IMG/VR virus record: IMGVR_UViG_3300021171_000005
Location: 29,866-93,865 of that record
Length of the DNA stretch: 64,000 bases
Strand: one strand, 5' to 3'
From: a virus
Position 1 is the stretch's first letter. Every line of letters begins with the position of its first letter. Below are positions 1,278 through 62,780 of the stretch, piece by piece. The position numbers and the translations under genes are program-made. The notes below the pieces were generated by a model. It worked only from the letters and a program-made list of their open reading frames with translations. It did no database searches and was not told the origin of the DNA.

Positions 1278-1506
1278 GATGTTCCAAGGAACGATAAGAG
1301 GTTCGGATTAACTTCTTGTCCGGAACTGGACATCGCAGTCGGGTCGCTCCCGGCAAACCCCGCGTTCTGGGGGTTTACAGAACAAAGAATCGTCTTAGCG
1401 GATGATTCTGCGTGCTGGTGGATGACTGGCCGTCGGATATCAGCATCGGATTTCGGCTCTGTCCAAGCCGCGTCCGAGAAGCCTGATCAATCTTCTCGGA
1501 CTCCGA
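1278..1506 (+). ncRNA. Candidate highly structured ncRNA or leader RNA
   Basis: At least 8 helices in 230 nt, with G-U wobbles valid on the + strand, and an H-type pseudoknot (GTTCTG 1364-69 / CAGAAC 1378-83). Confidence 0.6.
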
Positions 1507-1522
1507 GTTTTAGGTGAATCAA

Positions 1523-1624
1523 ATGTGGGTTCGTGCCTGCCCGATTTGCCGTGTAATTTTATGCAAGAAAACCCTTCAGGAAATCCTCTACTGCATATGC
1601 GGAAAATTCGTGTGGGGCCGGTAG
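1523..1624 (+). CDS. 33-aa zinc-ribbon microprotein (MWVRACPICRVILCKKTLQEILYCICGKFVWGR)
   Basis: Translated by hand; AGGTGA RBS; CxxC...CxCG; below the ORF-track size cutoff. Confidence 0.5.
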   Translation: MWVRACPICRVILCKKTLQEILYCICGKFVWGR

Positions 1625-1720
1625 AGGAAATTATCGCTGAATTGCCCGCCATTCCTCCAATCACATTGGAGTTTTGCATATTTTTACAATCCAATTTTGA
1701 CGAAATCATAAAAGACTTAC

Positions 1721-2281
1721 ATGACGACAAAGACCTGCACACATCCTAATTGCAACCGACCGTTCTATGCTAAGAATTCTTGTAAATATCACTATTACGC
1801 CAGCCGCAAAACGGATGATGTAAAATTAAAACAACAAGAATACCAAGCACAATATTACCAAGATAATAAGGAAAGGATTCGAGACCGGAATCTTGAACAT
1901 AGAGACCAACGCCTTCAGTATCTAAAGGAGTGGAGGCTGGCTAATCCCGATATGTACCGACATTATCGTATGACCAATCCTGAACGGTTTATTGAAACTA
2001 GTCGTAAACAGAATTATGCCAAGTATGGCATTACATATGAAGAAAAACTTCAAAGAATAGAACTTCAAGGAAGCAAATGCGCCATTTGTGGGGTAAGCGA
2101 ACCCGGCGGCAAGCACGGACAGTGGGTTACTGATCACGACCACGCTACAAATTGTCTAAGAGCTGAATTATGCAATAGTTGCAACTTAATGCTAGGATTA
2201 AGTAAAGATAATCCAGAAATCCTAAAACAGGCAGCTAAATATTTAGAATCTTGGTCGCAATCTAAAAAGGGTGCGGCATGA
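1721..2281 (+). CDS. Endonuclease VII-like (HNH) homing endonuclease
   Basis: KYGIT...CAIC...DHDH...RAELCNSCN motif. Confidence 0.85.
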   Translation: MTTKTCTHPNCNRPFYAKNSCKYHYYASRKTDDVKLKQQEYQAQYYQDNKERIRDRNLEHRDQRLQYLKEWRLANPDMYRHYRMTNPERFIETSRKQNYAKYGITYEEKLQRIELQGSKCAICGVSEPGGKHGQWVTDHDHATNCLRAELCNSCNLMLGLSKDNPEILKQAAKYLESWSQSKKGAA

Positions 2282-2862
2282 CCAAAGCCCGCTGGGAAAC
2301 GTATAACGACGAGATTCTGGGCAAGGACACGCCAGAGATGGAAGCGGCGATGGCCGCATATGCCCGGAATCGGCATGAAACCAGCAGTGAGCAAAATAAA
2401 GAAGAATTAGCTCGCTGGAAAGAGGGCAATGCCGCAATCGCTTCGCAGTATCAGTGGGTTAAACCCGAAGAATACGCCGATATGGGACCGCGCGTCGGGC
2501 GCATTCTAACCTATGACCAGTTCATTAACATTCTGCGCGAGAAGTGCAAGTTGACATGTTTTTATCGAGAGATGGGGCACCCCCAGAAACTCGCCCTGTG
2601 GGTCCAGAAGAATGGAATGACCGAACCACAAGTTGCTTGCTGGGTGCAAAGACCCTACATGATCGAGTTCGAAGTAATGCGCTTTGATGATAAGGGTGTT
2701 CCGCTGGATAGCCGGTATAGGGGGTGGCGCACTTGTTTGTTGCAAATGAGAATGAAAGAAATGTTGACCGAACAACAAATTAACAAGGCATTCGGCTCTG
2801 CCACCGGCCCCGCATCTGAACGATATAACATGACAATGAAAAGCTTACGGAACAATTTCTAA
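2278..2862 (+). CDS. Hypothetical phage protein
   Basis: 194-aa ORF, ATGA overlap with the upstream gene. Confidence 0.6.
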   Translation: MTKARWETYNDEILGKDTPEMEAAMAAYARNRHETSSEQNKEELARWKEGNAAIASQYQWVKPEEYADMGPRVGRILTYDQFINILREKCKLTCFYREMGHPQKLALWVQKNGMTEPQVACWVQRPYMIEFEVMRFDDKGVPLDSRYRGWRTCLLQMRMKEMLTEQQINKAFGSATGPASERYNMTMKSLRNNF

Positions 2863-3128
2863 TGCAATACCAAACTCAAGATTCGCGGTTGGCTGCCTTT
2901 TTCCTGACAAATGGTATTCCATTCTCGGGGACAGAACTCCGTTATCAGGATGAAGATGATCGCGTGTTGTTGAATTTTACCATCACTGATCAGGACAAAT
3001 TCGCGCAGCTTAAGCGAGATTTCTTCGAGAATGGCACGGTTCCGGCATTGCTGTTCGCCAACAATCTTAAGTTTATTATGCACGCAATCCGCGAGGCCCG
3101 CGAATTGGCAAGACTTTCTGTTCGATAA
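2862..3128 (+). CDS. Small phage protein (DUF5659-like)
   Basis: YQTQDSRLAAFF...G pattern; TAATG translational coupling. Confidence 0.45.
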   Translation: MQYQTQDSRLAAFFLTNGIPFSGTELRYQDEDDRVLLNFTITDQDKFAQLKRDFFENGTVPALLFANNLKFIMHAIREARELARLSVR

Positions 3129-3159
3129 AGAACCTTACCTCAAACCTTAATAGGATTAT

Positions 3160-3759
3160 ATGACTGACGAAGTGAAAGCAAAACAAAAGACTAAAGCACA
3201 GTTATTGGCAGCAGATGTTGATTCGTTGACCACAGAAGAACTCGAACGACGTAAATTGTTCATTACGTTGGATAAAGAAGAAGCCGACTCGCAGGATATT
3301 CGCGAACGCCTCGCAGAGCGCGACAATAAACGCACGATGCGTTTTGAAGGGTATAAATCCAAAGGCCGCGAGCTGAAGAAAATGGTCGCGGACCAGACAG
3401 TTCAGCAGGCCAATTGCAGCCATCGTAAGGGCGGTCGTGGTCTAGAAGCCCTGCAACGCGGGGGCACTGATAGCGATTACGCGGTTATCCGCCATCTGCT
3501 TCCTACCAATGAGATTTGGCAGCGCTGTCAGCGGTGCGGAAAGACATGGCGTCCCCCAAATCAACTCGATTATGCAATGGATGCATCGGAAGGTCGCTTG
3601 GCATTTGAATCCGATATGCGAGCCTACAAAGAGGCCATTGGCTGGCCGACCGACAATATTATGAGTACTGGTATCACCTTCCAGCACCACAGCGAGGACA
3701 ACGATGTTCGGGCGAAGCAATTTGTTCACGATGTCATGAAAGATACCAATCTTCGTTAA
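3160..3759 (+). CDS. Hypothetical protein with coiled coil and Zn-binding motifs
   Basis: CSH...CQRCG; RBS AGGA. Confidence 0.6.
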   Translation: MTDEVKAKQKTKAQLLAADVDSLTTEELERRKLFITLDKEEADSQDIRERLAERDNKRTMRFEGYKSKGRELKKMVADQTVQQANCSHRKGGRGLEALQRGGTDSDYAVIRHLLPTNEIWQRCQRCGKTWRPPNQLDYAMDASEGRLAFESDMRAYKEAIGWPTDNIMSTGITFQHHSEDNDVRAKQFVHDVMKDTNLR

Positions 3760-7833: not shown

Positions 7834-8553
7834 ATGCCAGCTTCTTCTACAAATACGCTTCTCTCTAGCATGGAGTGGGCGAAGAAATTCGTGTTTAATC
7901 GCCAACTTTCGCTTGGGGATTTTAAGGAACCCGCGATTACGTCGGCCAACGTGGTAAAACAAACCATGATGGGGCCGCCATTTAAATGGCGCTGGAATCG
8001 GCAAGTAATTACTTTCAATACCATTATTGGGCAGCAAGATTACGCTCAAGCAAGTAATTTCGGGTGGATTGAAAACGCATCGGTTCAAGATACCGGAGTT
8101 AGCCCGAGCAAATGGTATCCATTAACCCCCAAAATTGATTTGACGCTCGATACTTCATTGGCGAGGCCCGCCAATATTTCGGCACAATTGGATGATTTGA
8201 ACGGAACCATCACTTTCAGGCTGCTACCCGTTCCGGATAAAGTCTATCCCGTGTCCATAACTGTACAAAATAAAGCCGCGTTATTTACGTCTTTGAATCA
8301 AACATGGGGGCCGATTCCCGATGAATACTCTTATATTTATCAATTGGGATTTCTGTCCTATATGTACGAATTCGCCGACGATTCCCGCTGGATTGGCGCT
8401 CGCCAGAGATTTATTTCCTCGTTGCTAGGAGCTTCACAGGGCCTTACCGCCACAGAAGTTAATCTTTTCCTTAATAATTGGCAGACTGTTTCGGCTGCAA
8501 CGACTCAGAAAGAAATGATATTGCAGCAAGGCACGCAGGCGCGACAAACTTAA
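7834..8553 (+). CDS. Head-tail adaptor / tail tubular protein A-like
   Basis: PFKWRWNR...GQQDY...PVPDKVY...IPDEY; lies before the nozzle gene. Confidence 0.55.
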   Translation: MPASSTNTLLSSMEWAKKFVFNRQLSLGDFKEPAITSANVVKQTMMGPPFKWRWNRQVITFNTIIGQQDYAQASNFGWIENASVQDTGVSPSKWYPLTPKIDLTLDTSLARPANISAQLDDLNGTITFRLLPVPDKVYPVSITVQNKAALFTSLNQTWGPIPDEYSYIYQLGFLSYMYEFADDSRWIGARQRFISSLLGASQGLTATEVNLFLNNWQTVSAATTQKEMILQQGTQARQT

Positions 8554-11500: not shown

Positions 11501-12269
11501 TCTATTGAACTACAACGCGCTTGATATTAATGGCGCGGATATGGGTTTCTACACGTCTGATAAGCGATTCGTTATTCTGAATCCGTCCTCGGGTCCGTCA
11601 GACGTTGGATTTACGATTGGCAATGTAATTACGTCGATCAGTCCTACTGCTGCGTATGTTACGTGGCATTCTTCTGGGGAAGATTCGGCGTGGTTCATCT
11701 CTAATGGTTCGACTGGATGGTACCGAGTCAGCCCAACTCCTTCACCGGAGCAGGGAATCACATGGTCACCTTTTGCCTCCATTGTTGGCGGGGCGAAGGC
11801 GGTCCAATCAATTGAAACCTCGCCGGGCGTGCATAATCTTTTGTTGGGACCAACGACCTCCGGTCCTATTCTGAATCGCAGCATCAGTTCATTTCAGGAT
11901 AATAGCAGCAACTATTCGTGGTTTGCGACGGTCGGCAGTCATGTGCTGGCGAATCCCGGACAGCTCGCCGAAGTGATGTTCTTGGCAGTGGATTCAGTGG
12001 CAATCGGAACCCCACCGTCGATTAGTGTAGTGTTCGACGAGGCCGTGCCTTATTACACGGGAGCATTCGAGCCGATTAATAACCCGGTGTACGATCCACC
12101 GACAACTCATCCTAGTGCCTCTCTTTATCAACAGAGATTCTATTTGTCCGAAACTGGACAACCAGCGGTGTGTCGGTCAATGCAGTATAGGATCGATTTC
12201 CCGGCGGAAAATGTGCAAAACGAAATCTTAAGCTGCACCGTCTTTGGCGCGTTGCTCGTGGAGCAATAA
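8553..12269 (+). CDS. Tail nozzle / DNA stabilization protein (P22 gp10 / T7 gp12-like) with large inserted domains
   Basis: N-terminal SGL..R...LARRPG and C-terminal beta-propeller-like region; insertion with WxAxTxY repeats and a PA14-like HNDGFYL motif; start by TAATG coupling. Confidence 0.6.
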   Translation: MTGSLQLAGAQSQKPPRYAPLYTSRFWSGLNTNRSPLRSAGSAYEERYLGTRGDALIDGSNCEITPRLTLARRPGNPVYNSSTFGPVDAFYSFREFNATTEQIRVMVDETTALYDGTANSRILVFTKSSGAGQSFMQSVGNNLFFANGIDQKKWVQTLFTRNASGALPNIANSTTLSTVSTPFLTTYVIDSNGNLQQLLATSLTTISNVAYTAPTLTLTVGSTAGITVGQNYVIWNMATAVWLDGMTINVVTASGTTVTATLVNAAHANYASAADTGNFTVIGGTPSAVTGGSVPTWNTTVPAAGNTPPWQGGFTVDGTAIWVNRGNPVENWGIAQTTSPPTVTVGSASAAWHANTYYSLPGVVIDTRSSNNNIWQATTTGTTGSTISFPTSPSVGDNFTEGTIVWHCVANTASAVWASHTNFASGALIVETAGGTPCLFRLSIAQPSVQLSTLMTAKFVAHSASGVFDGDWGGSVGAPVLFGTATPLVIAATATNINSHLWNRYNTSLQPIVVYTLNGAGESSAATSTTPWAGATTNWEMMLFGTMTVNQAGPVSFLVGHNDGFYLGMDGGATYVSGPNTGLSTRTLSPWNGYPLVGGNNVPGDFSAGETLTVNCPTAGTYNFEWAFAQKDTFQVFTVTANGAQITPTPLETGTSIPSFPGFSKAFAPNYANIVETQIGNPAVPSVPGSKAYEWDNLGPVTDFAWRAKVAVTLANTTITDPNNNTEAPFEAGVSGTVTPTFATGLNQLTNDNPNLVWINKGPASAPTPGTISAFNGGFQYVVALVNTMTNTVSNASGFSVATGNFIGASGITITGGLPATANIDPQSDWVAIFRTTDGQTTPFLIPGTGNSIYTVPLSQYLQNGYVDSTPDTGLNNLIEAPIAGENTPPANGAQNLTYHLSRIFFSVGNTVYWTSGPDAPVGNGIEGVAPANTQVFPSLVRRLVPTTAGLFVFTVSDIYVIIGQGTASNPIQPAYPYLQGIGLLNYNALDINGADMGFYTSDKRFVILNPSSGPSDVGFTIGNVITSISPTAAYVTWHSSGEDSAWFISNGSTGWYRVSPTPSPEQGITWSPFASIVGGAKAVQSIETSPGVHNLLLGPTTSGPILNRSISSFQDNSSNYSWFATVGSHVLANPGQLAEVMFLAVDSVAIGTPPSISVVFDEAVPYYTGAFEPINNPVYDPPTTHPSASLYQQRFYLSETGQPAVCRSMQYRIDFPAENVQNEILSCTVFGALLVEQ

Positions 12270-14661: not shown

Positions 14662-16848
14662 ATGGCAGATGATGATCAGGTAATAGAAGCACCAGAAGTA
14701 GACGAGTCTCCCGAACCGGATCAGTCCAGTTCTGGACAACCTCCGGTCGCTGCCGCGCCGATGGCTCCGCCTGCCCAGCCGCAGGGTCCGCCCATTCAGG
14801 TCGTAGCCGCGCATCCAAAGGCGAATCTTTTTCATAATCTCTTGAACGCTCTGGGGGGCGGGGATCAAACGCAATATTCCGTCGATCCACAAACTGGGGC
14901 GATGTCGGTTACCCGTGTTCCTCAAACTTCTGGCCAATTGGCTAAGGGAATCCTAGCCGGTGCCCTCACGGGAATGTTCGCGGGCGCGGGGGAGCGCGGT
15001 CCCGGAAGCGAAGGTCGATCCGCCGCCGCTGGATTCGCCGCCGCACAACAGCAACGCAATGCTGTTCAGGCACAGAACCAAGCAATGGCTAAGGAAGATT
15101 TTGAGCGCCAGCAACAGGCCAAAGTCCGCCAAGCGCAGATTATGAAGGCGAATTTCGACGCCATGAAATCTGCTTACGCTATCGGCAAGGAAAACGACGA
15201 ACAGAAAGATAAAATCGTTTCCAATCATGCCGATGATTTGGCTCAGTGGGCTAATACTGGAGCGGTTAAAGACAAAGACGTTCCGTCCGATCAATTGATG
15301 AAGAAAGGTTACGATCCGTCCAAATATATCGCAGTGCCGGATGGTAAAGTTGCTGTCTTCAAACCGGATGGCTCGCGGGCGACGGACGAAAATGGCGTTC
15401 CGCTTTCTCAACTGACGTACAGCGTTATCGACGGAACTACGCAGGCCCCGCTTACGCAAGAAAAATATGACAAGATGGTGAAATACGGCCTTCAGAAGCA
15501 GGGATCGTCTACACAAATTCCTGAAGGTGCAACCGTTTCTTCCGCAGTTCTGGCCCAAATGAATCATCGTATGGACCTCGTTGATCAGACGCAGAATGAG
15601 ATTGATAAGGCCATTGGACCGGGCAAAGTTAATGTAGTGGACAAGATCAAAGAGAATCCGGGATTATTGCCCGCCATTGAAGCCTACCACAACGATGGTT
15701 CCTCTACAGAAATCGACAATCAGATTAATAACCTTCAGGCAAAGAATCCTCAAGCTGCGGGGCTTATGCGTAGTTTGGTGGGTAAAGACGAACTCGAAGG
15801 TCTCAAGGAAAAACGCGAGGATCGTATCGCTGCTGGAAAAGCCGCAGCTACGGAAACCGCACGAATCAACGCCGAAGAAGGCACTCCAACTGGAAAAGCA
15901 AAAGCTAAGAAAGAATCTCAGCAACTAACTAACGAACAACTCGAAGGCCAAATTAAGCAACTAGATTTGGCTAAGAAAAAAGCCGAAGCCGCGCCCGCAA
16001 ATACTCAACACGGCCCACTTGAGAACGGTATCGATAATACGTATATAAATAGCTTACCTTCGGAAAAACAAAACGCAGTGCGTTTGATTGGCAAAGGAAC
16101 CATTCCATATACTGCTCAAGCCCTGCGTACTTCGGTAGGTCAGAATTATTTAGAAATCCTCGCCAATGCTTTCCCCGGAGATGCTACTCATCCGGGATTC
16201 GATGCTTCTCGTTTTCCAATATACGAGAAAACTCGTATGGGATTTACTTCGGGCAAAGAAGCTCAAGGTACCCGAGCATTTAGCACAGCAATGGAACACT
16301 TGAAGGAGGCAAATGACAATATCAGTGCCCTTTCTACCATTGGCGGATTAAAGGATTTAACTCAAATCGGAGCGTTCGGTTCTTCTGCTCGTCAACAAGC
16401 GAATCGTCTAAACGTGGCAAAAGATGCGGTCGGAGAAGAACTAGCAAAAGCGTATAAAGCGGGTGTAGCCGATAAAAATGAAGTTGAAGGTTGGAAAGAT
16501 AAGTTGAATACCAATGTTCCTAGTAAATTGAAAGATAATATTCAAGAAGTTGCCCGACTACTCAAAGGTCAATTCGATTCTTTGCAGTCTCAATGGGATA
16601 ATGGCTCTCCTCCGGGGATGGTTTCTCCATTGAATAATTTGATTTCGCCGCAAGCACAAAAAGCCTATAAAGGCATCATTGGGCAAGATATCGGATATGG
16701 CACGTCGGCAGGGAGCGCACAGAATCCGCCAGCAGCCCCGCAATCTCATACATTTAGTCTCAGCGCGTGGCAGAAAGCCAATCCTACCGGCGATGCGAAT
16801 GCTGCTAAAGCCGCCGCGCAAGCTCAAGGATATCAGGTCACAAATTAA
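14662..16848 (+). CDS. DNA ejection / internal virion protein
   Basis: Long helical A/Q/K-rich ORF; start chosen after the AGGA RBS. Confidence 0.55.
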   Translation: MADDDQVIEAPEVDESPEPDQSSSGQPPVAAAPMAPPAQPQGPPIQVVAAHPKANLFHNLLNALGGGDQTQYSVDPQTGAMSVTRVPQTSGQLAKGILAGALTGMFAGAGERGPGSEGRSAAAGFAAAQQQRNAVQAQNQAMAKEDFERQQQAKVRQAQIMKANFDAMKSAYAIGKENDEQKDKIVSNHADDLAQWANTGAVKDKDVPSDQLMKKGYDPSKYIAVPDGKVAVFKPDGSRATDENGVPLSQLTYSVIDGTTQAPLTQEKYDKMVKYGLQKQGSSTQIPEGATVSSAVLAQMNHRMDLVDQTQNEIDKAIGPGKVNVVDKIKENPGLLPAIEAYHNDGSSTEIDNQINNLQAKNPQAAGLMRSLVGKDELEGLKEKREDRIAAGKAAATETARINAEEGTPTGKAKAKKESQQLTNEQLEGQIKQLDLAKKKAEAAPANTQHGPLENGIDNTYINSLPSEKQNAVRLIGKGTIPYTAQALRTSVGQNYLEILANAFPGDATHPGFDASRFPIYEKTRMGFTSGKEAQGTRAFSTAMEHLKEANDNISALSTIGGLKDLTQIGAFGSSARQQANRLNVAKDAVGEELAKAYKAGVADKNEVEGWKDKLNTNVPSKLKDNIQEVARLLKGQFDSLQSQWDNGSPPGMVSPLNNLISPQAQKAYKGIIGQDIGYGTSAGSAQNPPAAPQSHTFSLSAWQKANPTGDANAAKAAAQAQGYQVTN

Positions 16849-18779
16849 TGGCTACTCCGACACCACAGCCAATTGATATTTCGGCGGGTTTGGTTCCCAA
16901 ACAAGATGCGGGGTCCGGTATAGATTTATCTGCCGGTCTTGATCAGTCCACATCCGGACAACCCGCCGCCCCGCAAGCACCATTCTTAGAACGAATGGGG
17001 CAGGGAATTGCTTCTGGTGCTGCTGAAACAGTTGCGGGGCTGGGCAAGATCGGCAGCCACATTCCCGGTACAAGTTACGTTTCCGAGAAATTAGGTGATG
17101 CTCTCGGTCTTCCTAAACTAGGACCCGATCAGAATCCCTATGACACCGTAGAGAAATCCGTCCAGCACAATAAAGAGCAAGCCACTAATAATACTGCGGG
17201 GCGGATTGGATACGGAGGGGAAACGCTGACTGAATTTCTCTTGGGCGACGAGGCTCTAAAAGGTTTGTCGTTGGCGGATAAACTTAAGGCCGCCTCTGGC
17301 GTTGCTCAAATGTTTGAGAAATCCCCGAAATTGATGAAAGCTGTTCAGATTGGCGCGGATGCCATGAAGAACTATCCAAAGGCTACTGAAATTGTCGGCG
17401 AGGCTATGCGGCAAGGAGCGGTACAAGGAACGCAGACTCTTGCCAAGACTGGCGGGGATGTTGACGAGGCCGCCAAAGAAGGCGCAACGATGGCCGGGAC
17501 TTCCGGTGTTCTTGGCGCAGTCGGGGCAGGTGCCGGAAGCCTTCTTGAAAAAGGCGGCAAAGCCGCACAAACCGTAGAAACACTCGGCAAGGTTGCCGAA
17601 GCTGCACCATCCAAGGAAGAAGTAACCGAAGGTGCTAAAAACGCCGTAGATGCCGCCAAGCAATCCATGCACACGAAGTTCGAGGCGGGCATTCAAGATT
17701 TGACCGAACGTTTGGGCGATAAAGAAGTTCCTCATGCGGACAGTCCTATCGCCGCTACTGCAAAAGAATTGATTAAGGCTCCCGAACCAGCCGAGCACGG
17801 GTTGGTGGCTGCTGCGAAAGAAGCCGCTGGCGAAAGAATGGACAAACCAGTGAAGGCTTTGCTTGATAAGGCCGCTGCGCAAGAAGGGCAGGCGTGGAAA
17901 GTAAATGATTTAGTTGATTTCCGGCAAGCCGTTAGAAAATTGGCGGATTCTTACCCGCCCGGCGACCCTAATGCCCGAACGCTTTATAAATTGCTACCTT
18001 CCGTGGACGATACTTTGGGAAAGTTGGCAGATCAATCTGGGGATACTGCTGCTAAATCCGATTACGCGGCACTTCGAAAAGACTACAAAAACAAAATCAA
18101 ATATTTCACTCCGTCTGGAAAACCAGAGGATCGCATTGCTTATGCGACAGCCAATGTTTTACGCACAGGGACCAAAGAAGACATTGGCAAGTATCTCATG
18201 AGTGGTGATGCCCGAGCCAAGGTTAAAGCCTTGACTGGACTGTTGGGCGATGACGGGGCTAAAGATATTGGTAAAAATGTTTTCAGTACGATGCTAGAAG
18301 ATGCTTCTCCAAATGGAAGATTGAATCCGACAGCTCTTGTCCAGAAGTGGGCAAAGTTACCAAATGAAGCCAAGAACAGTCTCTTTGATTCTAAGATTGG
18401 CGACACCGCTATCCAACAGCTAATGCAGGATACCAAAAGCGCCGCTCAAGTTCAGAGATTGATGCGTTTAGGTGTGTTGTCTGCCATCTCTGGACCCATC
18501 GCTCATCCTATAGGCGCAGGAGTTGGAACTTTATTAGGATTGACAATCGAAGGCGGAGGATTTGAGGGCGGACGGAAAATGCTAGATTACGTTGCCAATC
18601 ACCCCGCAGTTTGGAAAAGTCTTGGATTGGCGGGAAAAGTTGCAAAAGCCGCCGAGTCCGGAACTGGACAAGCTCTCGGCACCGTAATCAAACAGCAGGC
18701 CGGACGCGGACTTAGCAGTGTAATGCAAGGGGCCTCGCAACCTTTGAGCGAACCCGCACCAATAGGAGAAGAACAATGA
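16848..18779 (+). CDS. DNA ejection / internal virion protein
   Basis: Ala/Gly-rich with duplicated IDxSAGL N-terminal motif; synteny. Confidence 0.55.
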   Translation: MATPTPQPIDISAGLVPKQDAGSGIDLSAGLDQSTSGQPAAPQAPFLERMGQGIASGAAETVAGLGKIGSHIPGTSYVSEKLGDALGLPKLGPDQNPYDTVEKSVQHNKEQATNNTAGRIGYGGETLTEFLLGDEALKGLSLADKLKAASGVAQMFEKSPKLMKAVQIGADAMKNYPKATEIVGEAMRQGAVQGTQTLAKTGGDVDEAAKEGATMAGTSGVLGAVGAGAGSLLEKGGKAAQTVETLGKVAEAAPSKEEVTEGAKNAVDAAKQSMHTKFEAGIQDLTERLGDKEVPHADSPIAATAKELIKAPEPAEHGLVAAAKEAAGERMDKPVKALLDKAAAQEGQAWKVNDLVDFRQAVRKLADSYPPGDPNARTLYKLLPSVDDTLGKLADQSGDTAAKSDYAALRKDYKNKIKYFTPSGKPEDRIAYATANVLRTGTKEDIGKYLMSGDARAKVKALTGLLGDDGAKDIGKNVFSTMLEDASPNGRLNPTALVQKWAKLPNEAKNSLFDSKIGDTAIQQLMQDTKSAAQVQRLMRLGVLSAISGPIAHPIGAGVGTLLGLTIEGGGFEGGRKMLDYVANHPAVWKSLGLAGKVAKAAESGTGQALGTVIKQQAGRGLSSVMQGASQPLSEPAPIGEEQ

Positions 18780-22542: not shown

Positions 22543-22561
22543 TTGTCCACATCTGGACAAA

Positions 22562-44442: not shown

Positions 44443-45345
44443 TCATTTTACGAGGTCGGCGAGGCTCCCATTTGATTGCGCGGTCGTGAGGTTCGAAATT
44501 ACCGTGTCCCACTGTCTCTTGGTCAAATCCTTGGCGCTGTCGCGTCCCGTAGACTTGAGAACGTATGTCTTAAGCTTATCGCGATCAATTTCAAATTTGC
44601 CGAGCTGCTTCTTGATCTCTGCCATCTGGTCCGAACTTGGCTTGTCACCAATGACATCAGGTACGTCCGAGTCATTAGCAATTGGCGGGGCGGCCTGAAC
44701 TGGTGGCTCTGGGGCGACCACCGTACTCGATTTGGGAACGGTTATACTCTCTTTCAGAACAGCAGGGCGGCCTCGCTTAGCAGCATTTACTTGTGATGGT
44801 ACGGCACCGCCGACTTGCGATTGTCCAGATGTGGACGGCTTGTCTTCCTGAGGGCCGTCGGTATCTTCGTCGGCGGCGATGCCCAGAACAGTCGAAACTC
44901 CGTACCGACGGTAATAGGTCAGATATGTTCCGAGTTCCTGAGGTTTCACTTGGGTGGGAACGGGCAGCCCCGCATCTTCCAAAACCTCATCTCCTAGCTG
45001 AAGCCGCGTGACCACATACAGTTTGTCCCCATCACGGCGAAGGGGCTGGGAAAACGCAATGCCCTGTTTAGAGAGAGCAGGAACAGCCATGCCCAAAATA
45101 TCAGATAAATCCGCGTATTTATATTCGTATTCGTACGCCCGGCCATCCTTTGTAGTTCCGCGAACCTTGCCGGTTTTGCTCTTGTTTACTGGTTTAAATT
45201 CAGATTGTGCTTTGGCTAGCGCGTCCGCCAATTTGCCTTTTGTGTAGACACTTTGTTGGCCGAAATGACCTGCTTTGAGATCGTGGGTAAAAGTATTGCC
45301 TTCGCTCAGAGCTAGGCTTGCTAATGAATTTACTGGAACGCTCAT
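44443..45345 (-). CDS. ERF-family ssDNA-annealing protein
   Basis: ALAKAQ.EF..V.K...YKYA.L; Q..G..LTY.RRY.....LGIA.DED.D; AAGGAG RBS. Confidence 0.88.
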   Translation of the reverse strand: MSVPVNSLASLALSEGNTFTHDLKAGHFGQQSVYTKGKLADALAKAQSEFKPVNKSKTGKVRGTTKDGRAYEYEYKYADLSDILGMAVPALSKQGIAFSQPLRRDGDKLYVVTRLQLGDEVLEDAGLPVPTQVKPQELGTYLTYYRRYGVSTVLGIAADEDTDGPQEDKPSTSGQSQVGGAVPSQVNAAKRGRPAVLKESITVPKSSTVVAPEPPVQAAPPIANDSDVPDVIGDKPSSDQMAEIKKQLGKFEIDRDKLKTYVLKSTGRDSAKDLTKRQWDTVISNLTTAQSNGSLADLVK

Positions 45346-46432: not shown

Positions 46433-46894
46433 TTACTTGATTGAGTTCTTAGGTTTCCTGCCTTTGATGCACGTATACTTCGGTTTCTCAAAGGCGTCTT
46501 CTGTACTCCATCCAGATAGAATACGCTGTTTTATCATTTGATATTCTAAACCTAACAATTCCGTCCATTCTTTTAAAAGCCGAGTCTCTCCCTTGTAGGC
46601 TATTAGCTTGACCGATCTGCTATTTCTAACTTGCTGTTTCTGAGTAGCCCACCGAAAATTGGTGGGACCGTATCCGCTATTGTTATCGATTCGGTCTAGA
46701 GACGTTCCCGGTGGCTTTGGACTTACGTCCGCCAAGAAATTATCATATTCATGCCAACGATCACACACAAGAATCCCCCGACCGCCATATCTGTGATACC
46801 AAGGCGTGTTGGGGTTGTAACACCGCTGCATCATCGCCTGCCAAGTTTTGTACAGAGGATCAAGCGATCTTTTAGTTTTAGGTCCGCGTTTCAT
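46433..46894 (-). CDS. HNH-like homing endonuclease
   Basis: W..M.QRC.NP....YGGRGI.VC.RW; SLDRIDN..GY.P.N.RWAT. Confidence 0.85.
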   Translation of the reverse strand: MKRGPKTKRSLDPLYKTWQAMMQRCYNPNTPWYHRYGGRGILVCDRWHEYDNFLADVSPKPPGTSLDRIDNNSGYGPTNFRWATQKQQVRNSRSVKLIAYKGETRLLKEWTELLGLEYQMIKQRILSGWSTEDAFEKPKYTCIKGRKPKNSIK

Positions 46895-46920
46895 TAACAC
46901 ATGTGGTGTTGCAGGGAACT

Positions 46921-47731: not shown

Positions 47732-48599
47732 ATAACAACTCCACGGCCTTCTGAACATATGGCACGTCGGCCTTATCCACGGTCATCGCATACGTGCCAA
47801 GCGTCATTGACTTGCAGGCATGTCCTAGTCTTTGAGCAAGGATTCGCTCAGGCATTCCCACCACACTGGCGAAGAAGGTCGCATTTCCTCGTCTAAGTCC
47901 ATGAAATCCAATGGGTTCCAAACCCTGCGCTCGCATAAGAGGATCGAGCACCCGCGCACGAATTTCCGTAACCCATTGCGGACCACCCGAACGAGTTCGG
48001 AAAACGTAAGCTTCGGCTTGACCCTGTAAACACTGTCCTCGTAGAAGATCAGATAATTCCTTCGAAATGGTAAAACTGCGGTAGGCCGTTGAGGTTTTGG
48101 GTTCTTGAGAACGACCCCCGAAGACAGAACGATTAACTGATAAGGTTCGCTCATTGAAATCAATGTCCTGAGTTTGCAAGCCGAGGGCTTCGCCGATTCG
48201 CAAACCGGTTTCGCACATCAAAGCCACAAAGGGTTTATGATCACCCGCAGCCGAGATAATCTTTTTCATCGATTCGTGGGGCAACCAATCTTGCTGGCTT
48301 TTACGAATCTTCGGCAAAATCGGGGTAGGGAACTCTTTGATAAGACCCTCGCGTTTTGCCTGACCTAAAAGATTCCTGAGAGTTCCGAAGACATTCCGAC
48401 AGGAGCGCGGCATCTGTTCTTTGGCGAGGTCTGAAAAGACTTGTTGGAGCTGCGCGTAGCTGATGTCCGGAAGTGGACAACCGCCAATCTTGGAGTTGAG
48501 CAGTTTAATATGTGAGGACATCGTATGTTGCGACGCCCTTTTCTTCATCGGCAGAATTGTGGTTCGCCAGCGCTCGGAAAATTCTTGAAATGTCTCCAT
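47718..48599 (-). CDS. Tyrosine recombinase lacking an N-terminal arm-binding domain
   Basis: TGLRIGE (R); PKT (K); HGLRR (HxxR); LGH; TYA (Y); 293 aa. Confidence 0.92.
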   Translation of the reverse strand: METFQEFSERWRTTILPMKKRASQHTMSSHIKLLNSKIGGCPLPDISYAQLQQVFSDLAKEQMPRSCRNVFGTLRNLLGQAKREGLIKEFPTPILPKIRKSQQDWLPHESMKKIISAAGDHKPFVALMCETGLRIGEALGLQTQDIDFNERTLSVNRSVFGGRSQEPKTSTAYRSFTISKELSDLLRGQCLQGQAEAYVFRTRSGGPQWVTEIRARVLDPLMRAQGLEPIGFHGLRRGNATFFASVVGMPERILAQRLGHACKSMTLGTYAMTVDKADVPYVQKAVELLYALE

Positions 48600-50229: not shown

Positions 50230-50847
50230 GGATAAAATACAATAATTACGAGGCGGGGGTTGTCCGGATGTGGACAGGGAACCCCGCAAACCAAGAAGGG
50301 ACTTGTATTCCACAGGAGACACAACGTAACTTATCGGTCATAAATGGTTACTAAAGGACGACAGGCATCATTGGCCGATAGTTACGTATTGACTAAATGG
50401 TAAAATAAAAACACCGGGAGAACAGATGGCGAAACACCTCTAAAAGACTCGCATTACTATAGTAACTTCCGATAACAGGTACTTTGTTATCAGTGACTTA
50501 CGGGCACTGTACTTAGGTAACGTGTGTCTAGACTTTGGTACCTTTGAAGTAAACACGCCTCGCACCCAAAATGGGACCAGTGAGCAAAAGGGGCCAGAAA
50601 GTACTGAACGCCGTGGTTGACTATCTTTATTGGAGCGCTCAGCAGTGCCGGAACACTGACGAGCAGATTCCGATCAAGCTGGCGCTAGCTCTTTGCGGGG
50701 CGATTCGCCGAGGCGACCAACATCCGTTCGAATCGGCTTGCTACAATGCCTTTGGCGGGGCGCTAGAAAATTACACTCGAAAACGTTTAAAGGAGAAATT
50801 CCAACAAGCCTATGAACTCCGCAAATGTATACCTACGACCGTGCCCG

Positions 50848-53447: not shown

Positions 53448-53655
53448 ACACCCCGCAAGGGTAGGTTGCTTCGGTAATCAAAACGCCGTATTACCTTGCC
53501 GAGTGACGGTAATTTCGGCATGTAAATTGCCGCTTACAACATTTACAATTCTATTTGTCCACATCTGGACAACCCGCCTCGCATTTCCTACAGGAATAAT
53601 CATACAGTTTCGACTGTAGTAGTCAAGTATTATTTTTTCAAAATGAGACGATTTT

Positions 53656-55605: not shown

Positions 55606-55895
55606 TATTTGTCCGGATGTGGACTAGATTGCGGGCGTTTCGCTTGCTCCGCTTTGTCGCAGGCATCCGTCCATTCGATCTCCAATCCCGCATCTTCCAG
55701 ATAATACATATGCTCCGCATTGGTATGCCCGCAGGGTAGGATGCTAGCCATCATTTGAGACCAAGACATATTGCACCATTCTTTCACTCGGGCGGCCAGC
55801 TCAATAGCCATAGATTGGGCCACGGGAATGTTCTCAAATCCGTATTCCCGGAGGCAGTATTTTATAATATCGGCTATGGTCGGCGAATTGGCCAT
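55605..55895 (-). CDS. Hypothetical protein
   Basis: TAATG-coupled to the polymerase gene. Confidence 0.5.
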   Translation of the reverse strand: MANSPTIADIIKYCLREYGFENIPVAQSMAIELAARVKEWCNMSWSQMMASILPCGHTNAEHMYYLEDAGLEIEWTDACDKAEQAKRPQSSPHPDK

Positions 55896-56717: not shown

Positions 56718-56933
56718 TTAGTTAACGTAGTTCGGCCTCGGACCCATCATAACGGCCAGCTTGATTCGTTTGCAGCCAGTACAGATATTATACCGCTTAA
56801 ACAGAATAGAGAATACCTTTTTTACTCGATCAACACTTACCCCGATTGATATTGCAATATCGTCGTTCTCGGCTCCGAGTAGCAGCAAACTGATCACACG
56901 GTTTTCAATATCGCGGGTTCGGATGCGTTTCAT
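56718..56933 (-). CDS. LuxR-type HTH protein
   Basis: E.RVI.LL..G..N.DIA..IGVS...VK.....LF.R. Confidence 0.65.
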   Translation of the reverse strand: MKRIRTRDIENRVISLLLLGAENDDIAISIGVSVDRVKKVFSILFKRYNICTGCKRIKLAVMMGPRPNYVN

Positions 56934-57486: not shown

Positions 57487-57861
57487 CTAACTACTCAAAC
57501 TAGTTTCGAGTTCACTGATTGTCGCTTCCGTGCTGTCCACTTCCGGACAATCGGTAGGTTCGATTGTCGCCACGAATTCTGCGATTTGAGCACGAGTCCA
57601 TTCGTGTTGATCGTTGAGATGATAAATGATATGCAACGCTTTTGATTTATATACGTGGCACGCCGGGCAATTATGCTGCTGCTCGATCCAAGGCCAAATA
57701 TCATAAAGCTTGGAATAAGAAGCTTCAACTGTAACTTGAACACCTACAGTCTGCAATGCTCCTCCAAGCGCACAGGGGGCGTCCTTGGAATACATTGAAT
57801 CCGCCCCGAATCCCTGTGGTTTCATCATTCCGTTCATCAAGATTGCGTGTGACAGTTTCAT
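57487..57861 (-). CDS. Conserved phage protein (DUF6197-like)
   Basis: KLS.AI..G...CALG.A...LND...WTR.QIA. Confidence 0.6.
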   Translation of the reverse strand: MKLSHAILMNGMMKPQGFGADSMYSKDAPCALGGALQTVGVQVTVEASYSKLYDIWPWIEQQHNCPACHVYKSKALHIIYHLNDQHEWTRAQIAEFVATIEPTDCPEVDSTEATISELETSLSS

Positions 57862-57862: not shown

Positions 57863-59551
57863 TTATCTCCTATTCGCTAATGCGCTATTGATACCGGGCA
57901 TGTTCGGCCCCGCATTTGGATTAACTCCATTGCCGGGCGGGAAAGCACTTCCTTTGTACGGTACTGTATTAACGAACTCATTGCCGGTCATTGAACCATT
58001 CGGCCAGCACGCGGCCACATGCTGCGCAATCGTACCGGGCAAACTCCAGCAATTCGTAAGACCGCCGCCAGTTGAATATACACCAAAATTACCGATATCT
58101 ACAACATTATTATCGAAATGAAAGTTGACATTCCCGGTAATCGGACCACCGGCATTGAGTATCCCATTGGCCATCGTAGCTGCTTTGTCCACAGCAGGAG
58201 TTAGCCAACCATCGTTTTGGAATACATTATTTGATACAGTAACGTCGTGATATGGTACTGTGCTATTTCCTCCTGCAAGGAGATTCGTAAACGATCCGCA
58301 CAGATAGCACGTTCCGTACTGCAAGTGATCGAATACATTGTCATGGATTGATTCATTGCCACAGGCAGCAGGCCACCCGCCCAAGTCGTTAGGACCGCAG
58401 CCAAGCTGTAAAGCCTGTCCTGCATACGAACTATAATTGAATCTAACCGTAACATTAGTGACCGCGCATATTGGGCAAACACTTCCACTTACTCCTGCCT
58501 GATTCTTTGGAGTTAGCAATATCGAAGCCCCGACTTGAGTAAAGCCCGCCCAATTATATTGTAGTCTGTTGCCTTGGATCAGAGCGCGATTAACATTCTT
58601 CATCTCGACATGATTCTTTACGATCCACGGATGCTTGATACCATCTTTTCCCGCCGTGCCTCCGTCGTATGTCGGGTCTTGAGGATTCCAAGATGTCGGT
58701 TTAAATATATCATTGTATTGAATTGTAACGTCGGGAGTTACGACAGTTGCGGGGCCTCCGCCAAAGATTACATTCTCGCCAGATGCTTCAAGGAAGTTGT
58801 TCTGAATCAAATAGTTACCGTCAGAACCGGTAGACAACCCACCAGAGATGGCTTGCGCATCCCCGCAACTCCCAGAAATCGCCCGGCAATGAAAATCAGA
58901 AAAATAGCTATTAATGACGGAAGAGTTGGGAGAGTTCGATAAATCAATGCCCCGCGTAGTTTCGTCGGTCGCCGTACCGTGGAACCAACAACGATCAACG
59001 ATAACAGTAGAGCCCAGATTGCGATACAGATTGTAAACAATCCCTGTACCAGATGTGCGCGTAACTTCCAATCCAATCAAACGGACAAACGATCCGCCGG
59101 TTAGCGAAGCGTTTTGGCCGTTGAGAATGATTGTCGGCATGAGTTTTGCCGCGCCGCTAGTTGGTTGGGCGTATGCCGGGCGATTGGGCAAAGAAACGAT
59201 CCCCGCAAATGCGGGAGAAACGCGGACATTCTCGCTTGGCAGTAAAGCCGAAGCAGTCTTAATTGTGATCCATTGCTGCGCCGTGCCATTCGGAAGAACC
59301 AATCCGCTTAATGTCGCAATGAATGCTGGATCAATAACAATTGTGTCGCCGGGTACGGCTGCGTTTAACACCGCCTGTAAGCTCGGCACATTGGCCGGAA
59401 CCAGAATCGGAAGGTTGTCGCTAGGCGTAAAGGATTGTCGGATTTCTGGAACCGACATAGGCAACTGAGCGGGGCCGTCGTATGTCTGTCCAGATGCGGA
59501 CAAAAACGCCCCGCAAATCAATATTGGCATTAGAACCTTGGGGAATTTCAT
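57863..59551 (-). CDS. Secreted right-handed beta-helix (polysaccharide lyase-like) protein
   Basis: Signal peptide; LQA.LNAA.PGDTI; IQNNFLEASGEN; KNHVEMKN; AGGAG RBS before ATG 59551. Confidence 0.7.
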   Translation of the reverse strand: MKFPKVLMPILICGAFLSASGQTYDGPAQLPMSVPEIRQSFTPSDNLPILVPANVPSLQAVLNAAVPGDTIVIDPAFIATLSGLVLPNGTAQQWITIKTASALLPSENVRVSPAFAGIVSLPNRPAYAQPTSGAAKLMPTIILNGQNASLTGGSFVRLIGLEVTRTSGTGIVYNLYRNLGSTVIVDRCWFHGTATDETTRGIDLSNSPNSSVINSYFSDFHCRAISGSCGDAQAISGGLSTGSDGNYLIQNNFLEASGENVIFGGGPATVVTPDVTIQYNDIFKPTSWNPQDPTYDGGTAGKDGIKHPWIVKNHVEMKNVNRALIQGNRLQYNWAGFTQVGASILLTPKNQAGVSGSVCPICAVTNVTVRFNYSSYAGQALQLGCGPNDLGGWPAACGNESIHDNVFDHLQYGTCYLCGSFTNLLAGGNSTVPYHDVTVSNNVFQNDGWLTPAVDKAATMANGILNAGGPITGNVNFHFDNNVVDIGNFGVYSTGGGLTNCWSLPGTIAQHVAACWPNGSMTGNEFVNTVPYKGSAFPPGNGVNPNAGPNMPGINSALANRR

Positions 59552-59997
59552 GTATCTCCTAGTATCCAAAAAAGCGTCCGTATTTATGTACGAGCCTCGC
59601 AACCTGATAGGCAACGTTGACAGCAAGGGCAAAAGCAGTTCCAATCATACAGATATTGTACTCTATTTCGTATTGCAATGTCTACACAAATAATCAGCAG
59701 CCCAAGCATACCATGTGTAAATGCTGACCGACCACGGCCATAAGAATAAACCATGTTTGCATATAATCGGTCTTGGTTTATGAAAATCCTTGCATTCCAC
59801 TGTAAGCTCCCGACTTTAGCGTGAAATCGCGGTTTCCAAATGCTCCAATAAGCCCGGAAAATCAGCGATATTGCCTTCAAATCCTATTACATCCGCGATC
59901 ATTCGGAGCTGGCCGCGCAATACCGCCAACTCAGACATAGCGTAAGCTTCTAGTAGTTGTGAAAGTTCGTCGTCTTTCGTCATGTCGTTACCTCTAT

Positions 59998-61134: not shown

Positions 61135-61186
61135 ATCGTCTTCCCCTGCTTAAATTATGTGTTGTTCCGTTCACTTTGATTATGAT

Positions 61187-61438: not shown

Positions 61439-61455
61439 ATTTCCTCACTTCTAGT

Positions 61456-61713
61456 TTAATCAGACAACTCAATTGATGATTTAAGTGCGTTCGGATCGCG
61501 TTCCACCATGTAGCCCATGTCAGCAAGTTCGCGCAGAATCGCCTGTGCCTTGCATCGCTCGTCGCTCATTCCACAGCAGTAGTGGTCGCAAAACTTAGCC
61601 ATCAGAATGGCGTTTATCATCGCGTGCTCTATCTCGGGAACCTTCAAGCAGGCGTGTTTCTCAAATTCCCCGTCCGTTTCGGTCTTGAAATCGCATACCA
61701 CACAATGTTCCAT
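61456..61713 (-). CDS. Small Zn-binding hypothetical protein
   Basis: CVVC...H.C; GAGGGG RBS. Confidence 0.5.
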   Translation of the reverse strand: MEHCVVCDFKTETDGEFEKHACLKVPEIEHAMINAILMAKFCDHYCCGMSDERCKAQAILRELADMGYMVERDPNALKSSIELSD

Positions 61714-61720
61714 ATCCCCT

Positions 61721-61966
61721 CACTCAACACATGTCTACTGCCCTTTGCGGGGGCTTGGCGGAGGCGGCAAAGGCATCCAATGAGAAATAGAGCCATCTGA
61801 CCAGTGTGTATCAGACTCTGGTCTGCCGCTACGACTGTCGATGTTTACGAAGTTCTTGTTGCCTTCCATGTCATCGGTTACAAAAATCAGCACATCTCGC
61901 CCTATTTTTGGCAATTGGTCGGCAACGGAAATCCATTTCATAAATCCTCCACTCAACACATGTCTA
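61721..61966. repeat. Perfect 17-bp direct repeat CACTCAACACATGTCTA (61721-37, 61950-66) flanking one gene
   Basis: Read directly from the sequence. Confidence 0.9.
61735..61941 (-). CDS. DUF551-family protein
   Basis: MKWISV.D.LP...SHWMPLP.PP. Confidence 0.85.
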   Translation of the reverse strand: MKWISVADQLPKIGRDVLIFVTDDMEGNKNFVNIDSRSGRPESDTHWSDGSISHWMPLPPPPSPRKGQ

Positions 61967-61979
61967 AAGTTTGTGCCAA

Positions 61980-62492
61980 TTAAACTAGTTTCGCCCGTTT
62001 TTCCTTGAAACCACAGTTATCGCAGTCAATTTGGTCGGGGTTTGCCTGAAATACACAGCGATACTTGCTGTCACACTGAGGGCACGGCTCACAACCATAC
62101 ATGTTGGCCGTTGGGCTATTGTAGTCAATTACATTCGACGGTTTCATCTTTATTTGCGGGGCGCGGCTTTCCTTATTGAAATGCCATCCGTCTAGGCATA
62201 TGTCCTTCCCATTATGATATGCGGGATCAAGACTCAGGCGAATTGCGCGGCTTGTGCTACGGCAGCTTGGACACTCATATAGCGCTCTGATTTCTCTTTC
62301 AATTTGCGCAGCGTGCGGTTTGAGATACTTGTCTGTGAATTCTTCCAAGCTTCGCCGACGGTGATATTCGTCCCATATTATGTGGCAATCGCAGAGCATT
62401 CCTCCCTCGCTCTGCCTCCACGAACATTTAGGATCGTGCTCCTCTGTTTTGGTAAGCCGCATAAACTTCCAAGCATCGGGGAAATCCATCAT
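61980..62492 (-). CDS. Cys-rich hypothetical protein
   Basis: Multiple CxxC motifs; ends in KLV; start inferred from ATGA overlap. Confidence 0.5.
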   Translation of the reverse strand: MMDFPDAWKFMRLTKTEEHDPKCSWRQSEGGMLCDCHIIWDEYHRRRSLEEFTDKYLKPHAAQIEREIRALYECPSCRSTSRAIRLSLDPAYHNGKDICLDGWHFNKESRAPQIKMKPSNVIDYNSPTANMYGCEPCPQCDSKYRCVFQANPDQIDCDNCGFKEKRAKLV

Positions 62493-62698
62493 TGTATTTC
62501 GATGTCTCGCGGTACAAACCATTGCCCGACAATGCACGAATTGTGGCCGCTCAGATGATCCGCTGCCCGTACTTCGCCATTGCCGTATTCCACGGCATCG
62601 ATACGAATCCAATCGCCGTATCTGTCCTTTGCGTATACTGGCGTATTCTCAGCTATTGCGCGGCTGGCTTCTTCGAATGTATTCGTTAGCTTTGCCAT
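62489..62698 (-). CDS. Small hypothetical protein
   Basis: Downstream of TTGACA at 62729-34. Confidence 0.45.
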   Translation of the reverse strand: MAKLTNTFEEASRAIAENTPVYAKDRYGDWIRIDAVEYGNGEVRAADHLSGHNSCIVGQWFVPRDIEIQ

Positions 62699-62780
62699 AT
62701 GCGAATCATCCCACATATACGGGGCGATTGTCAAGCATTAATCCACAAATCTTTAGTAACCTTGTCCAGATACGGACAAC

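Follow-up and report, generated by a model that had tools for sequence, protein, structure and literature searches.

Introduction

Dispersed palindromes in phage genomes have already been published for the Cluster O mycobacteriophages, although without a reader or a function. Corndog and its relatives carry 17-bp dyad repeats whose function was left unassigned, and the authors suggested a dimeric regulator and judged a role in transcription unlikely (Cresawn et al., 2015, PMC4351075). The repeats are located between genes, near the 5' ends of genes and within genes, their positions are kept among five phages and they are absent from the host genome (PMC4351075). Here we describe a comparable element, an 18-bp palindrome with the arms TTGTCC and GGACAA, in a 64,000-bp stretch of phage DNA, in the following called the window. 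The window comprises bases 29866-93865 of a 93,865-bp IMG/VR virus record (IMGVR_UViG_3300021171_000005), which is rated as complete. The phage is labeled G000 and its relatives are numbered in the same way; window positions are kept apart from genome positions, which refer to the whole record.

The palindrome of G000 shares several properties with the Cluster O repeats. Our recount of Corndog gave 34 copies of TGTTCGG-NNN-CCGAACA, and more than 30 copies per genome are found in both systems (36-43 in G000). The half-site is TGTTCGG there and TGTYCRG here, with the TGTTCAG of the relative G003 as the clearest case, and both systems combine an A/T-rich centre with intergenic as well as intragenic copies and with positions that are kept in relatives. 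On the other hand, the spacer of Cluster O has 3 bp and that of G000 has 2 bp (7+2+7; G002 uses both 2 and 1), 41% of the Corndog sites are intergenic compared with about 20% in G000, and the phages of Cluster O, which infect Actinomycetota, are siphoviruses with genomes of 70 kb, whereas G000 is a relative of the podovirus Tunturi 3.

A second comparison is offered by KorB of the IncP plasmid RK2, a CTP (cytidine triphosphate)-dependent sliding clamp with 12 O_B operators (PMC11790492), whose system is the best understood of those with dispersed palindromes. In the KorB and ParB systems, as in G000, short perfect palindromes are dispersed on a replicon, and they are read there by a dimer of the ParB-type helix-turn-helix. 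A domain of the candidate reader proposed below aligns over its full length with the DNA-binding domains of these proteins (Z 5.6-6.8; PDB 1r71, 8qa8, 6s6h), but the candidate is without the N-terminal CTPase domain, and the sites of G000 are three to four times more numerous than those of KorB and mostly intragenic.

The stoperators of Cluster A mycobacteriophages are asymmetric 13-14-mers, which are recognized by a monomeric immunity repressor, oriented with transcription and mostly intergenic (PMC9283540, PMC6550527). Cluster A and G000 have in common that tens of copies of a short site are spread genome-wide, including coding DNA, and that close relatives differ in the sequence of the site, whereas the sites of G000 are palindromic with equal arms, unoriented and 80% intragenic. 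An asymmetric 14-mer in the relative G007 is a closer analogue of the stoperators than the G000 palindrome.

Palindromes in G000 are selected at the DNA level

The exact form TTGTCC-N6-GGACAA occurs five times in the window and not once in each of 100 shuffles, and with up to two mismatches the window contains 25 copies compared with a shuffle mean of 2.46 and a maximum of 8. For the whole 93.9-kb genome, 10, 25 and 43 copies were counted at zero, up to one and up to two mismatches, respectively, and a reversed-pattern control gave no match at up to one mismatch (vs. 25). Shuffling of synonymous codons within the open reading frames (ORFs), which keeps proteins and codon usage, left only 3.1, 7.8 and 18.1 copies, and these survivors are mostly the intergenic ones, which were not shuffled. 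On the basis of crude ORFs, 29 of the 36 good sites are intragenic and seven are intergenic. The intragenic sites are read in frame 0 (17 sites, L-S-x-x-G-Q), frame 2 (eight sites, C-P-x-x-D) and frame 1 (four sites). As three frames with unrelated peptides are used, selection acts on the DNA and not on the peptide. This shows that copies of the palindrome are selected at the DNA level against coding constraint.

A preliminary description, which was made from the letters of the window alone, had already placed most copies within unrelated genes and had proposed selection on the DNA, and both the reading frames and the codon-preserving shuffles bear this out. Every palindrome coordinate listed there was correct when the sequence was rechecked. 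The two sites described as weak, at 29913 and 57065, have three mismatches each, the 18-mers at 22543 and 53555 as well as those at 33374 and 62762 are indeed identical, and the copy at 30246, in which one arm is degraded, is the exact reverse complement of 34886. The copies in the window are the following (window coordinates; no strand is assigned):

1316-1333, copy TTGTCCGGAACTGGACAT, intergenic
8251-8268, weak copy GTGTCCATAACTGTACAA with two mismatches, intragenic, not kept in relatives
12144-12161, exact copy in the gene of a 1263-amino-acid (aa) virion protein, 108 nt from the gene end, same position in G006
14722-14739, copy, 93 nt into a 739-aa gene, same position in G003
16944-16961, copy, 96 nt into a 643-aa gene
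18337-18354, copy in the 643-aa gene, read in frame 1, position shared with G006
18654-18671, copy in the 643-aa gene, 108 nt from the gene end, not conserved in G006
20451-20468, copy TTATCCACATCTGGACAA, intragenic
22543-22560, exact copy, occupies the gap that separates convergent genes, as does a copy in G006 (position 95688 there)
24605-24622, copy, 123 nt into a 445-aa gene
30246-30263, degraded copy with one arm lost, exact reverse complement of 34886
33374-33391, exact copy in a 236-aa gene, same position in G006 and G003, absent from G007
34886-34903, degraded copy, reverse complement of 30246
38282-38299, copy in the sliding-clamp gene, same position in G006 with another spacer
41842-41859, copy in the replication-initiator gene, same position in G003
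44006-44023, copy near the 3' end of a 133-aa gene
44821-44838, copy in the ERF recombinase gene
48463-48480, copy in the tyrosine-recombinase gene, 119 nt from its start, position shared with G006
50260-50277, copy, intergenic in a divergent region, with the flanks GCGGGG and CCCCGCAA
52339-52356, copy near the 3' end of a 141-aa ORF
53555-53572, exact copy in the gap after a DNA polymerase gene
55609-55626, copy at the 3' end of a 96-aa ORF, adjoining the start of a DNA polymerase gene
57533-57550, copy near the 3' end of a 124-aa ORF
59486-59503, copy at the signal-peptide end (LSASGQ) of a 593-aa beta-helix protein, same position in G006 (LSAYGQ)
62762-62779, exact copy upstream of a promoter-like site

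Anatomy of the site and its spacer

An alignment of 29 spacer-oriented sites (example of the 18-mer: TTGTCCACATCTGGACAA) revealed that C5, C6 and G13 are present in 29 of 29 sites and the remaining core positions in 27-29, whereas the outermost T and A are less strict and no conservation is visible outside the 18 bp. The spacing between the arms is fixed at 6 bp. The site is best described as TGTYCRG-WW-CYGRACA, a 16-bp palindrome with T/A flanks. The parS site (TGTTNCACGTGAAACA) also has 16 bp, begins with TGT and ends with ACA. The orientation of the sites relative to transcription is unbiased (17 plus, 16 minus, mixed within gene blocks), in agreement with the initial observation that both orientations occur regardless of the direction of transcription.

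The conserved, asymmetric spacer that had been reported at first holds in so far as G000 clearly prefers RGAWSY. At orthologous sites, however, the arms are kept and the spacer is altered or flipped (GGAAGT in G000 vs. ACAAGC in G006; GGAACT vs. GCAGAT), and this lack of a conserved orientation argues that the asymmetry of the spacer is without function. The symmetric spacers AGATCT and GGATCC are missing because both hexamers are avoided genome-wide: the 93.9 kb of G000 contain no AGATCT and a single GGATCC, and CCWGG is also found only once. In G002, AGATCT is tolerated (35 copies) and the perfect palindrome TGTCCAGATCTGGACA is in use. Both the excess of frame 0 (17 of 29) and the choice of the spacer orientation fit coding tolerance; the spacer ACATCT, for example, encodes Thr-Ser, whereas its complement AGATGT would encode Arg-Cys. 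As a side observation, GATC is not avoided in G000 (320 copies), while the relative G001 contains 121 CCWGG, and G002 and Tunturi 3 contain 35-38 AGATCT; the avoidance of short palindromes looks like a fingerprint of the restriction systems of each host.

The spacer also bears on the suggestion that the best copies are DnaA boxes. Only sites with the spacers ACATCT or ACATCC read TTGTCCACA, and those with GGAACT, AGTTCC or GCATCT do not. The 9-mer TTWTNCACA is thus a property of a spacer subset of the G000 sites and not of every copy, and the idea of DnaA titration found no support.

Judged from their anatomy, the sites are very probably docking sites for a protein on duplex DNA. A role of the transcribed palindrome as an RNA hairpin in processing, stability or translational control is extremely unlikely. 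A stem of 6-7 bp is possible, the copy at genome position 19656 and several copies in G001 directly precede a ribosome-binding site, and 13 of 15 copies in the early region of G001 share one orientation. Such a stem is short and weak, however, the sequence of the arms is conserved and does not covary, both orientations relative to transcription are equally frequent in G000, copies are found between convergent genes and deep within genes, and a scan of the window with Rfam matched no family.

Placement of the sites across the genome

The mean gap between sites is about 2.6 kb, and the coefficient of variation of the gaps (0.75) is somewhat below the value of 1 for random placement. A 21-kb block of small early genes holds 14 of the 36 sites (about 2.5-fold enriched, p 0.02), and the intergenic fraction is modestly enriched (seven of 36 sites vs. 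9% of positions, p 0.04). In genes of at least 900 nt, seven of 12 sites are located at most 170 nt from a gene end compared with 23% expected (p 0.009), which may only reflect the tolerance of protein termini and linkers for the encoded peptide.

This excess at the ends of long genes could also be taken as a hint that the sites are substrates of an enzyme, either crossover or nicking sites of the tyrosine recombinase (Pfam PF00589, E 1.9e-17) or hot spots of module exchange between related phages. Inverted arms around a 6-bp spacer correspond to the core layout of tyrosine recombinases, and recombination between Cluster O repeats gave insertions and deletions (PMC4351075). We nevertheless consider an enzyme substrate very unlikely, as the recombinase gene does not consistently co-occur with the motif: PF00589 is absent from G002, in which the motif is present, and present in G007, in which the motif is absent. 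Moreover, the arms have merely 6-7 bp, the gene-end bias can be explained by terminus tolerance, and forty sites in both orientations, some of them identical, would scramble the genome if they were active.

Some copies are located close to promoter-like sites. The site at genome position 1595 occupies the spacer and the -10 element of a promoter-like TTGACA-17-GACAAT, two strong promoter-like sites have a copy centred about 74 bp (window position 50260) or about 72 bp (62762) upstream of their predicted start, and the copy at 53555 lies about 20-37 nt downstream of another promoter-like site. The preliminary description had noted 50260 and 62762 as promoter-proximal, and their position upstream of promoter-like sites is correct, but these sites are consensus matches only, whose frequency is no higher than in shuffles.

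A second abundant word, CCSCGCAA, is present in 111 copies in 93.9 kb compared with about six expected. It occurs in both orientations and mostly in coding DNA (e.g., window 50282-50289 and 59509-59516). Ten of 40 palindromes have a copy within 40 bp (9% expected), and the paired palindrome is almost always located 12-35 bp 5' of CCSCGCAA, as is also the case in G006 and G003. A few copies are embedded in promoter-like spacers, such as TTGACA-acggg-CCGCGCAA-ctt-TATGAT at genome position 27121. Variants of the word are present in G006, G003 and G007.

Related phages and lineage-specific words

The palindrome was followed in related genomes by counting TGTCC-N6-GGACA with up to one mismatch:

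G000, 39 copies (window phage)
G006, 44 copies (portal identity 80%)
G003, about 10 copies, increasing to 26 if TGTTC/GAACA arms are allowed (portal identity 74%; fragment of 70 kb)
G001, 21 copies of GTCCGGWWCCGGAC (portal identity 35%; 20 proteins in common)
G002, about 10 copies of GTCCRGWWCYGGAC and five of a 13-bp form with a 1-bp centre (only two proteins in common at E 1e-5)

The arms of G003 are TGTYC/GRACA, with the half-site TGTTCAG in use, and the palindrome takes the form GTCCAGATCYGGAC in G002, whose two proteins in common with G000 (E 1e-5) do not include a DNA-binding candidate. The palindrome is missing in G007, whose portal is 67% identical, as well as in G008-G015 and Tunturi 3. 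For 11 of about 20 alignable sites in G000, a site is present at the same codon in G006 or G003 at a local protein identity of 40-80%, and the sequence of G007 is unrelated at these positions; the conservation in related phages anticipated at the outset is thus real. Two intergenic copies are also conserved in place, one after the terminase region and one at window position 22543, where the copy was correctly described as filling the gap between convergent genes.

In G001, the sites are spread over positions 53197-85673, and 17 of 21 copies have TT as their central dinucleotide on the plus strand. Of the 15 sites within the early and replication genes on the minus strand, 13 have GGAACC when read in sense, and several copies directly precede a ribosome-binding site; no such orientation bias is visible in G000.

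Other relatives contain words of their own. CGTA-N5-TACG occurs 22 times in G011 (1.4 expected), GTAT-N3-ATAC is present in 38 copies in each of the portal relatives G012 and G013 (about two expected), and several 10-mers are found 40-45 times in G013. In the sister phage G007 (IMGVR_UViG_3300050821_004371), the asymmetric 14-mer RTACGGAAAACGNA takes the place of the palindrome, with 36 copies (e.g., at 29561 and 39362), 26 of which (72%) are co-oriented with genes. A ribosome-binding site often follows closely after these copies, and the 14-mer could be an element of the stoperator or promoter type. The use of lineage-specific words on a shared genome plan argues for a phage-encoded, co-evolving reader rather than a host factor.

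A conserved host protein would be an alternative, such as a global regulator, CRP/FNR-like or of another type, which has TGTCC-N6-GGACA as its site and is exploited or titrated by unrelated phages of one host group. The TGTnn-N6-nnACA layout is typical of CRP-family sites, and the same arms recur in G002, which has almost no genes in common with G000. The matches listed in a search of one genome for each of 185,579 species are scattered single ones at the level of chance, with no multi-copy chromosome among them, and several are coding coincidences in thrombospondin-type repeats. Furthermore, close relatives, which probably infect similar hosts, carry quite different palindromes, and G002 encodes a distant member of the reader family described below. 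A host factor, which was also among the binders named initially, is for these reasons rather improbable.

One bacterial occurrence stands out as a separate observation. In at least seven metagenome-assembled genomes of Solirubrobacterales (L168, L172, L179, L187, L191, L195, L224), TTGTCC-RGATCY-GGACAA lies in a conserved non-coding context, with ...GGGTAGTTTCAGCC on one side, followed by the run ...GGAAAAAG. The copy is located just downstream of an aminotransferase gene in the loci checked, and neither the neighboring genes (aminotransferase, acetyltransferase) nor Rfam explained it.

A candidate reader encoded next to the sliding-clamp gene

It had been proposed that a dimeric protein coats the genome, and the geometry of the site is that of a dimer site and the spread of about 2.6 kb fits as well, but none of the binders named at that time is supported. 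The ORF at 50848, described as an XRE-type protein, and the basic ORF at 52698 have neither a Pfam or PHROG match nor a homologue in the motif-sharing relatives. The LuxR-like ORF at 56718 lacks both a Pfam match and conservation in G006. The N-terminal domain of the winged-helix initiator cannot be aligned among phages with the same motif; only the C-terminal 200 residues of this protein are common to G000, G006, G003, G001 and G007. An HNH endonuclease was rejected as a binder on distribution or lack of conservation, and nothing usable was obtained from Pfam and PHROGs for about 30 of the small early ORFs.

We put forward a different protein, which is encoded directly after the sliding clamp:

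36972-37712, minus strand, candidate reader of 246 aa from an unannotated family, with a central helix-turn-helix region at about residues 34-152 and a homodimer model
37691-38746, minus strand, sliding-clamp gene (PHROG 947, E 6.9e-31), overlapping at its 3' end with the reader gene

This arrangement, in which the reader gene directly follows and overlaps the clamp gene, is found in G000, G006, G003 and G001. The protein is characterized by the pattern L-G-x-x-L ... W ... G-Y-x-x-Y/F ... G-R-T-x-L-Y ... I-A-E-x-L-L. Its homologues are 67% (G006), 44% (G003), 36% (G007) and 31% (G001) identical, the family is recognized at E 1e-70 or better in these genomes and in G000, and a profile of 36 family members matched G002 at 81935-82636 (E 4.6e-9). 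A family member is thus present in all five palindrome-carrying genomes (G000, G006, G003, G001, G002). Among 1.84 billion representatives, 747 clusters belong to the family at E 1e-3 or better, nearly all of them with 210-250 aa. A tblastn search against cultured phages gave no match at E 1 or below. In a search of related loci, a diverse alignment of the family gave no conserved stretch and the G001 protein matched only itself.

The whole reader was modeled with a mean predicted local distance difference test score (pLDDT) of 78. The central domain (residues 34-152) was folded again on its own, with a pLDDT of 91.5, because the fold search with the whole protein was swamped by generic helical matches. 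With an aligner independent of Foldseek, the best structural neighbor of this domain is the DNA-binding domain of ParB in complex with parS (6s6h_B; Z 6.8, root-mean-square deviation 3.2, 97 of 119 residues), followed by VirB-DNA (6.2), SopB-DNA (5.9), KorB 8qa8 (5.8), KorB 1r71 (5.6) and Spo0J (5.6), with only the Rubisco factor Raf1 and an ORC fragment interspersed. About a dozen of the first 30 Foldseek rows belong to the same superfamily (Noc 7ng0, TM score 0.57). We take this as suggestive of a ParB/KorB-like fold, a lead rather than a finding. No Pfam match to the N-terminal CTPase domain of ParB was obtained, and residues 2-30 are modeled as one long helix in the dimer interface. No ParA or KorA partner was noticed in Pfam and PHROG scans of about 60 of the approximately 150 ORFs, which were not aimed at such partners.

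The homodimer model of the reader, which is symmetric, reached a score of 0.72 compared with 0.00 for the best of three controls; in a calibration, 20 of 30 solved homodimers and one of 23 solved monomers reach this mark, although these counts apply only roughly to the present model, for which our own alignment was used. The contacts agree to at least 92% between runs, and the pLDDT of the partner is at least 79. The modeled interface is formed by residues 8-59 and 157-230, whereas residues of about 80-138, which contain the putative recognition helix and the following helices, remain free, as is needed for a reader of palindromes. We regard the 246-aa protein as the best candidate and give it about an even chance of being the reader of the sites.

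Several observations weigh against this assignment. Presence or absence of the reader correlates only loosely with the lattice of sites: a clear member of the family is encoded by G007, which lacks a palindrome lattice, weak family matches (1e-5 to 9e-3) are found in G008, G010, G011, G012 and G013, which have weak or different lattices, and a profile search gave no family match in Tunturi 3 or G009. The family has no Pfam or PDB sequence match, and the fold scores are below the thresholds of the tools (best Foldseek E 0.75; Z 6.8, under 8). In addition, the putative recognition helix differs between G000 and G002 despite matching half-sites, and the adjacency to the clamp could equally fit an accessory protein of the replisome without sequence specificity.

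Alternatively, the palindromes could be operators and roadblocks of another small regulator, for example the GerE-like ORF of 71 aa (window 56718-56933) or the true GerE protein encoded by G006, comparable to Cluster A stoperators or the repeats of phiC31, a phage with dispersed inverted repeats in its genome. LuxR-type boxes such as the TraR box have a central AGATCT and the same 18-bp length as the element studied here. The tyrosine recombinase is present, and G000 may therefore be temperate; the early region is enriched in sites, some of which overlap with promoter-like sites or flank them. By language-model features (0.93, 178 shared), the 71-aa ORF is similar to the stand-alone GerE/LuxR proteins that are common in Acidobacteriota, and G006 encodes a GerE protein (E 8.7e-9). 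However, the proteins of G000 and G006 are not detectably related (E about 1) despite the common motif, and no GerE was found in G001 or G002, i.e., no protein of this family is conserved with the motif across G000, G006, G001 and G002. The 71-aa ORF also fails the Pfam GerE model and has only two homologues in 5.8 billion proteins, and sites of which 80% are intragenic and which are unoriented are unlike stoperators. We therefore regard a small regulator of this kind as unlikely.

A possible link back to Cluster O came from Corndog gp122 (240 aa), which marginally matched the reader family in hmmsearch (E 8.4e-4) and in hhalign (probability 75%, E 2.5e-5 over 56 columns). According to these profile comparisons, gp122 and the candidate reader may be distantly homologous.

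Further features of the phage

G000 has a GC content of 48%. PHROG and Pfam scans identified a large terminase, a portal and a major head protein, a T7-type primase-helicase, a split family-A DNA polymerase and a sliding clamp as well as UvsX-like and ERF recombinases, endonuclease VII, an RNA ligase and a tyrosine recombinase. Megablast of 20 kb against 50,697 phage records revealed no near-identical phage, and the only cultured relative found is the Tunturiibacter phage Tunturi 3, whose portal is 57% identical. Tunturi 3 is a 97.6-kb podovirus with an Acidobacteriota host from tundra soil (PMC11924767), and from this kinship G000 is probably a large soil podovirus as well.

At window 63873-64000, the end of the contig falls within a 27-nt tandem repeat, which reads NTGYQSAAT on the minus strand with at least three repeats; the record may be cut within a repeat. 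The 593-aa protein at window 57863-59644 (minus strand), which is located among early genes, has an N-terminal signal peptide and resembles a right-handed beta-helix (pectate-lyase-like). The HNH endonuclease at window 46433-46900 (minus strand; PHROG 3377, E 8e-52) is one of the two proteins common to G000 and G002 and probably a mobile homing-type gene.

Possible mechanism and significance

The explanation that we favor, at somewhat short of even odds, is that the palindromes dock a symmetric dimer of a phage protein, most likely the 246-aa neighbor of the clamp. Such a dimer would dock on the double-stranded palindrome with one ParB/KorB-type helix-turn-helix per subunit on each TGTCC half-site, and the long N-terminal helix and the C-terminal helices would hold it together. 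Lacking the CTPase domain of ParB, the reader is expected to sit on its sites rather than to slide. As a best guess, the sites may serve to control or organize the whole phage chromosome in connection with replication, and copies close to promoters would act as operators. The purpose could be promoter control at a subset of sites, genome organization or, in view of the clamp neighborhood, a replication-linked role.

In a wider sense, the unannotated family of about 230 aa might consist of CTPase-less homodimers with a domain like the DNA-binding domain of ParB, which read lineage-specific palindromes every 2-3 kb and are genetically coupled to the clamp; the Cluster O repeats would then represent the same system with gp122 as reader. 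We consider this generalization conceivable but doubtful.

Compared with the palindromes published for Cluster O, the data add a second, unrelated phage lineage with nearly the same half-site, evidence for selection from codon shuffles and positional conservation, and a concrete, testable reader candidate. This candidate is a predicted dimer, and gp122 of Corndog, a phage that can be cultured, is possibly homologous to it. Confirmation of the reader would reveal a novel strategy by which lytic or temperate phages address their whole chromosome with one protein, and the fixed place of the reader beside the clamp gene would point to a link with replication.

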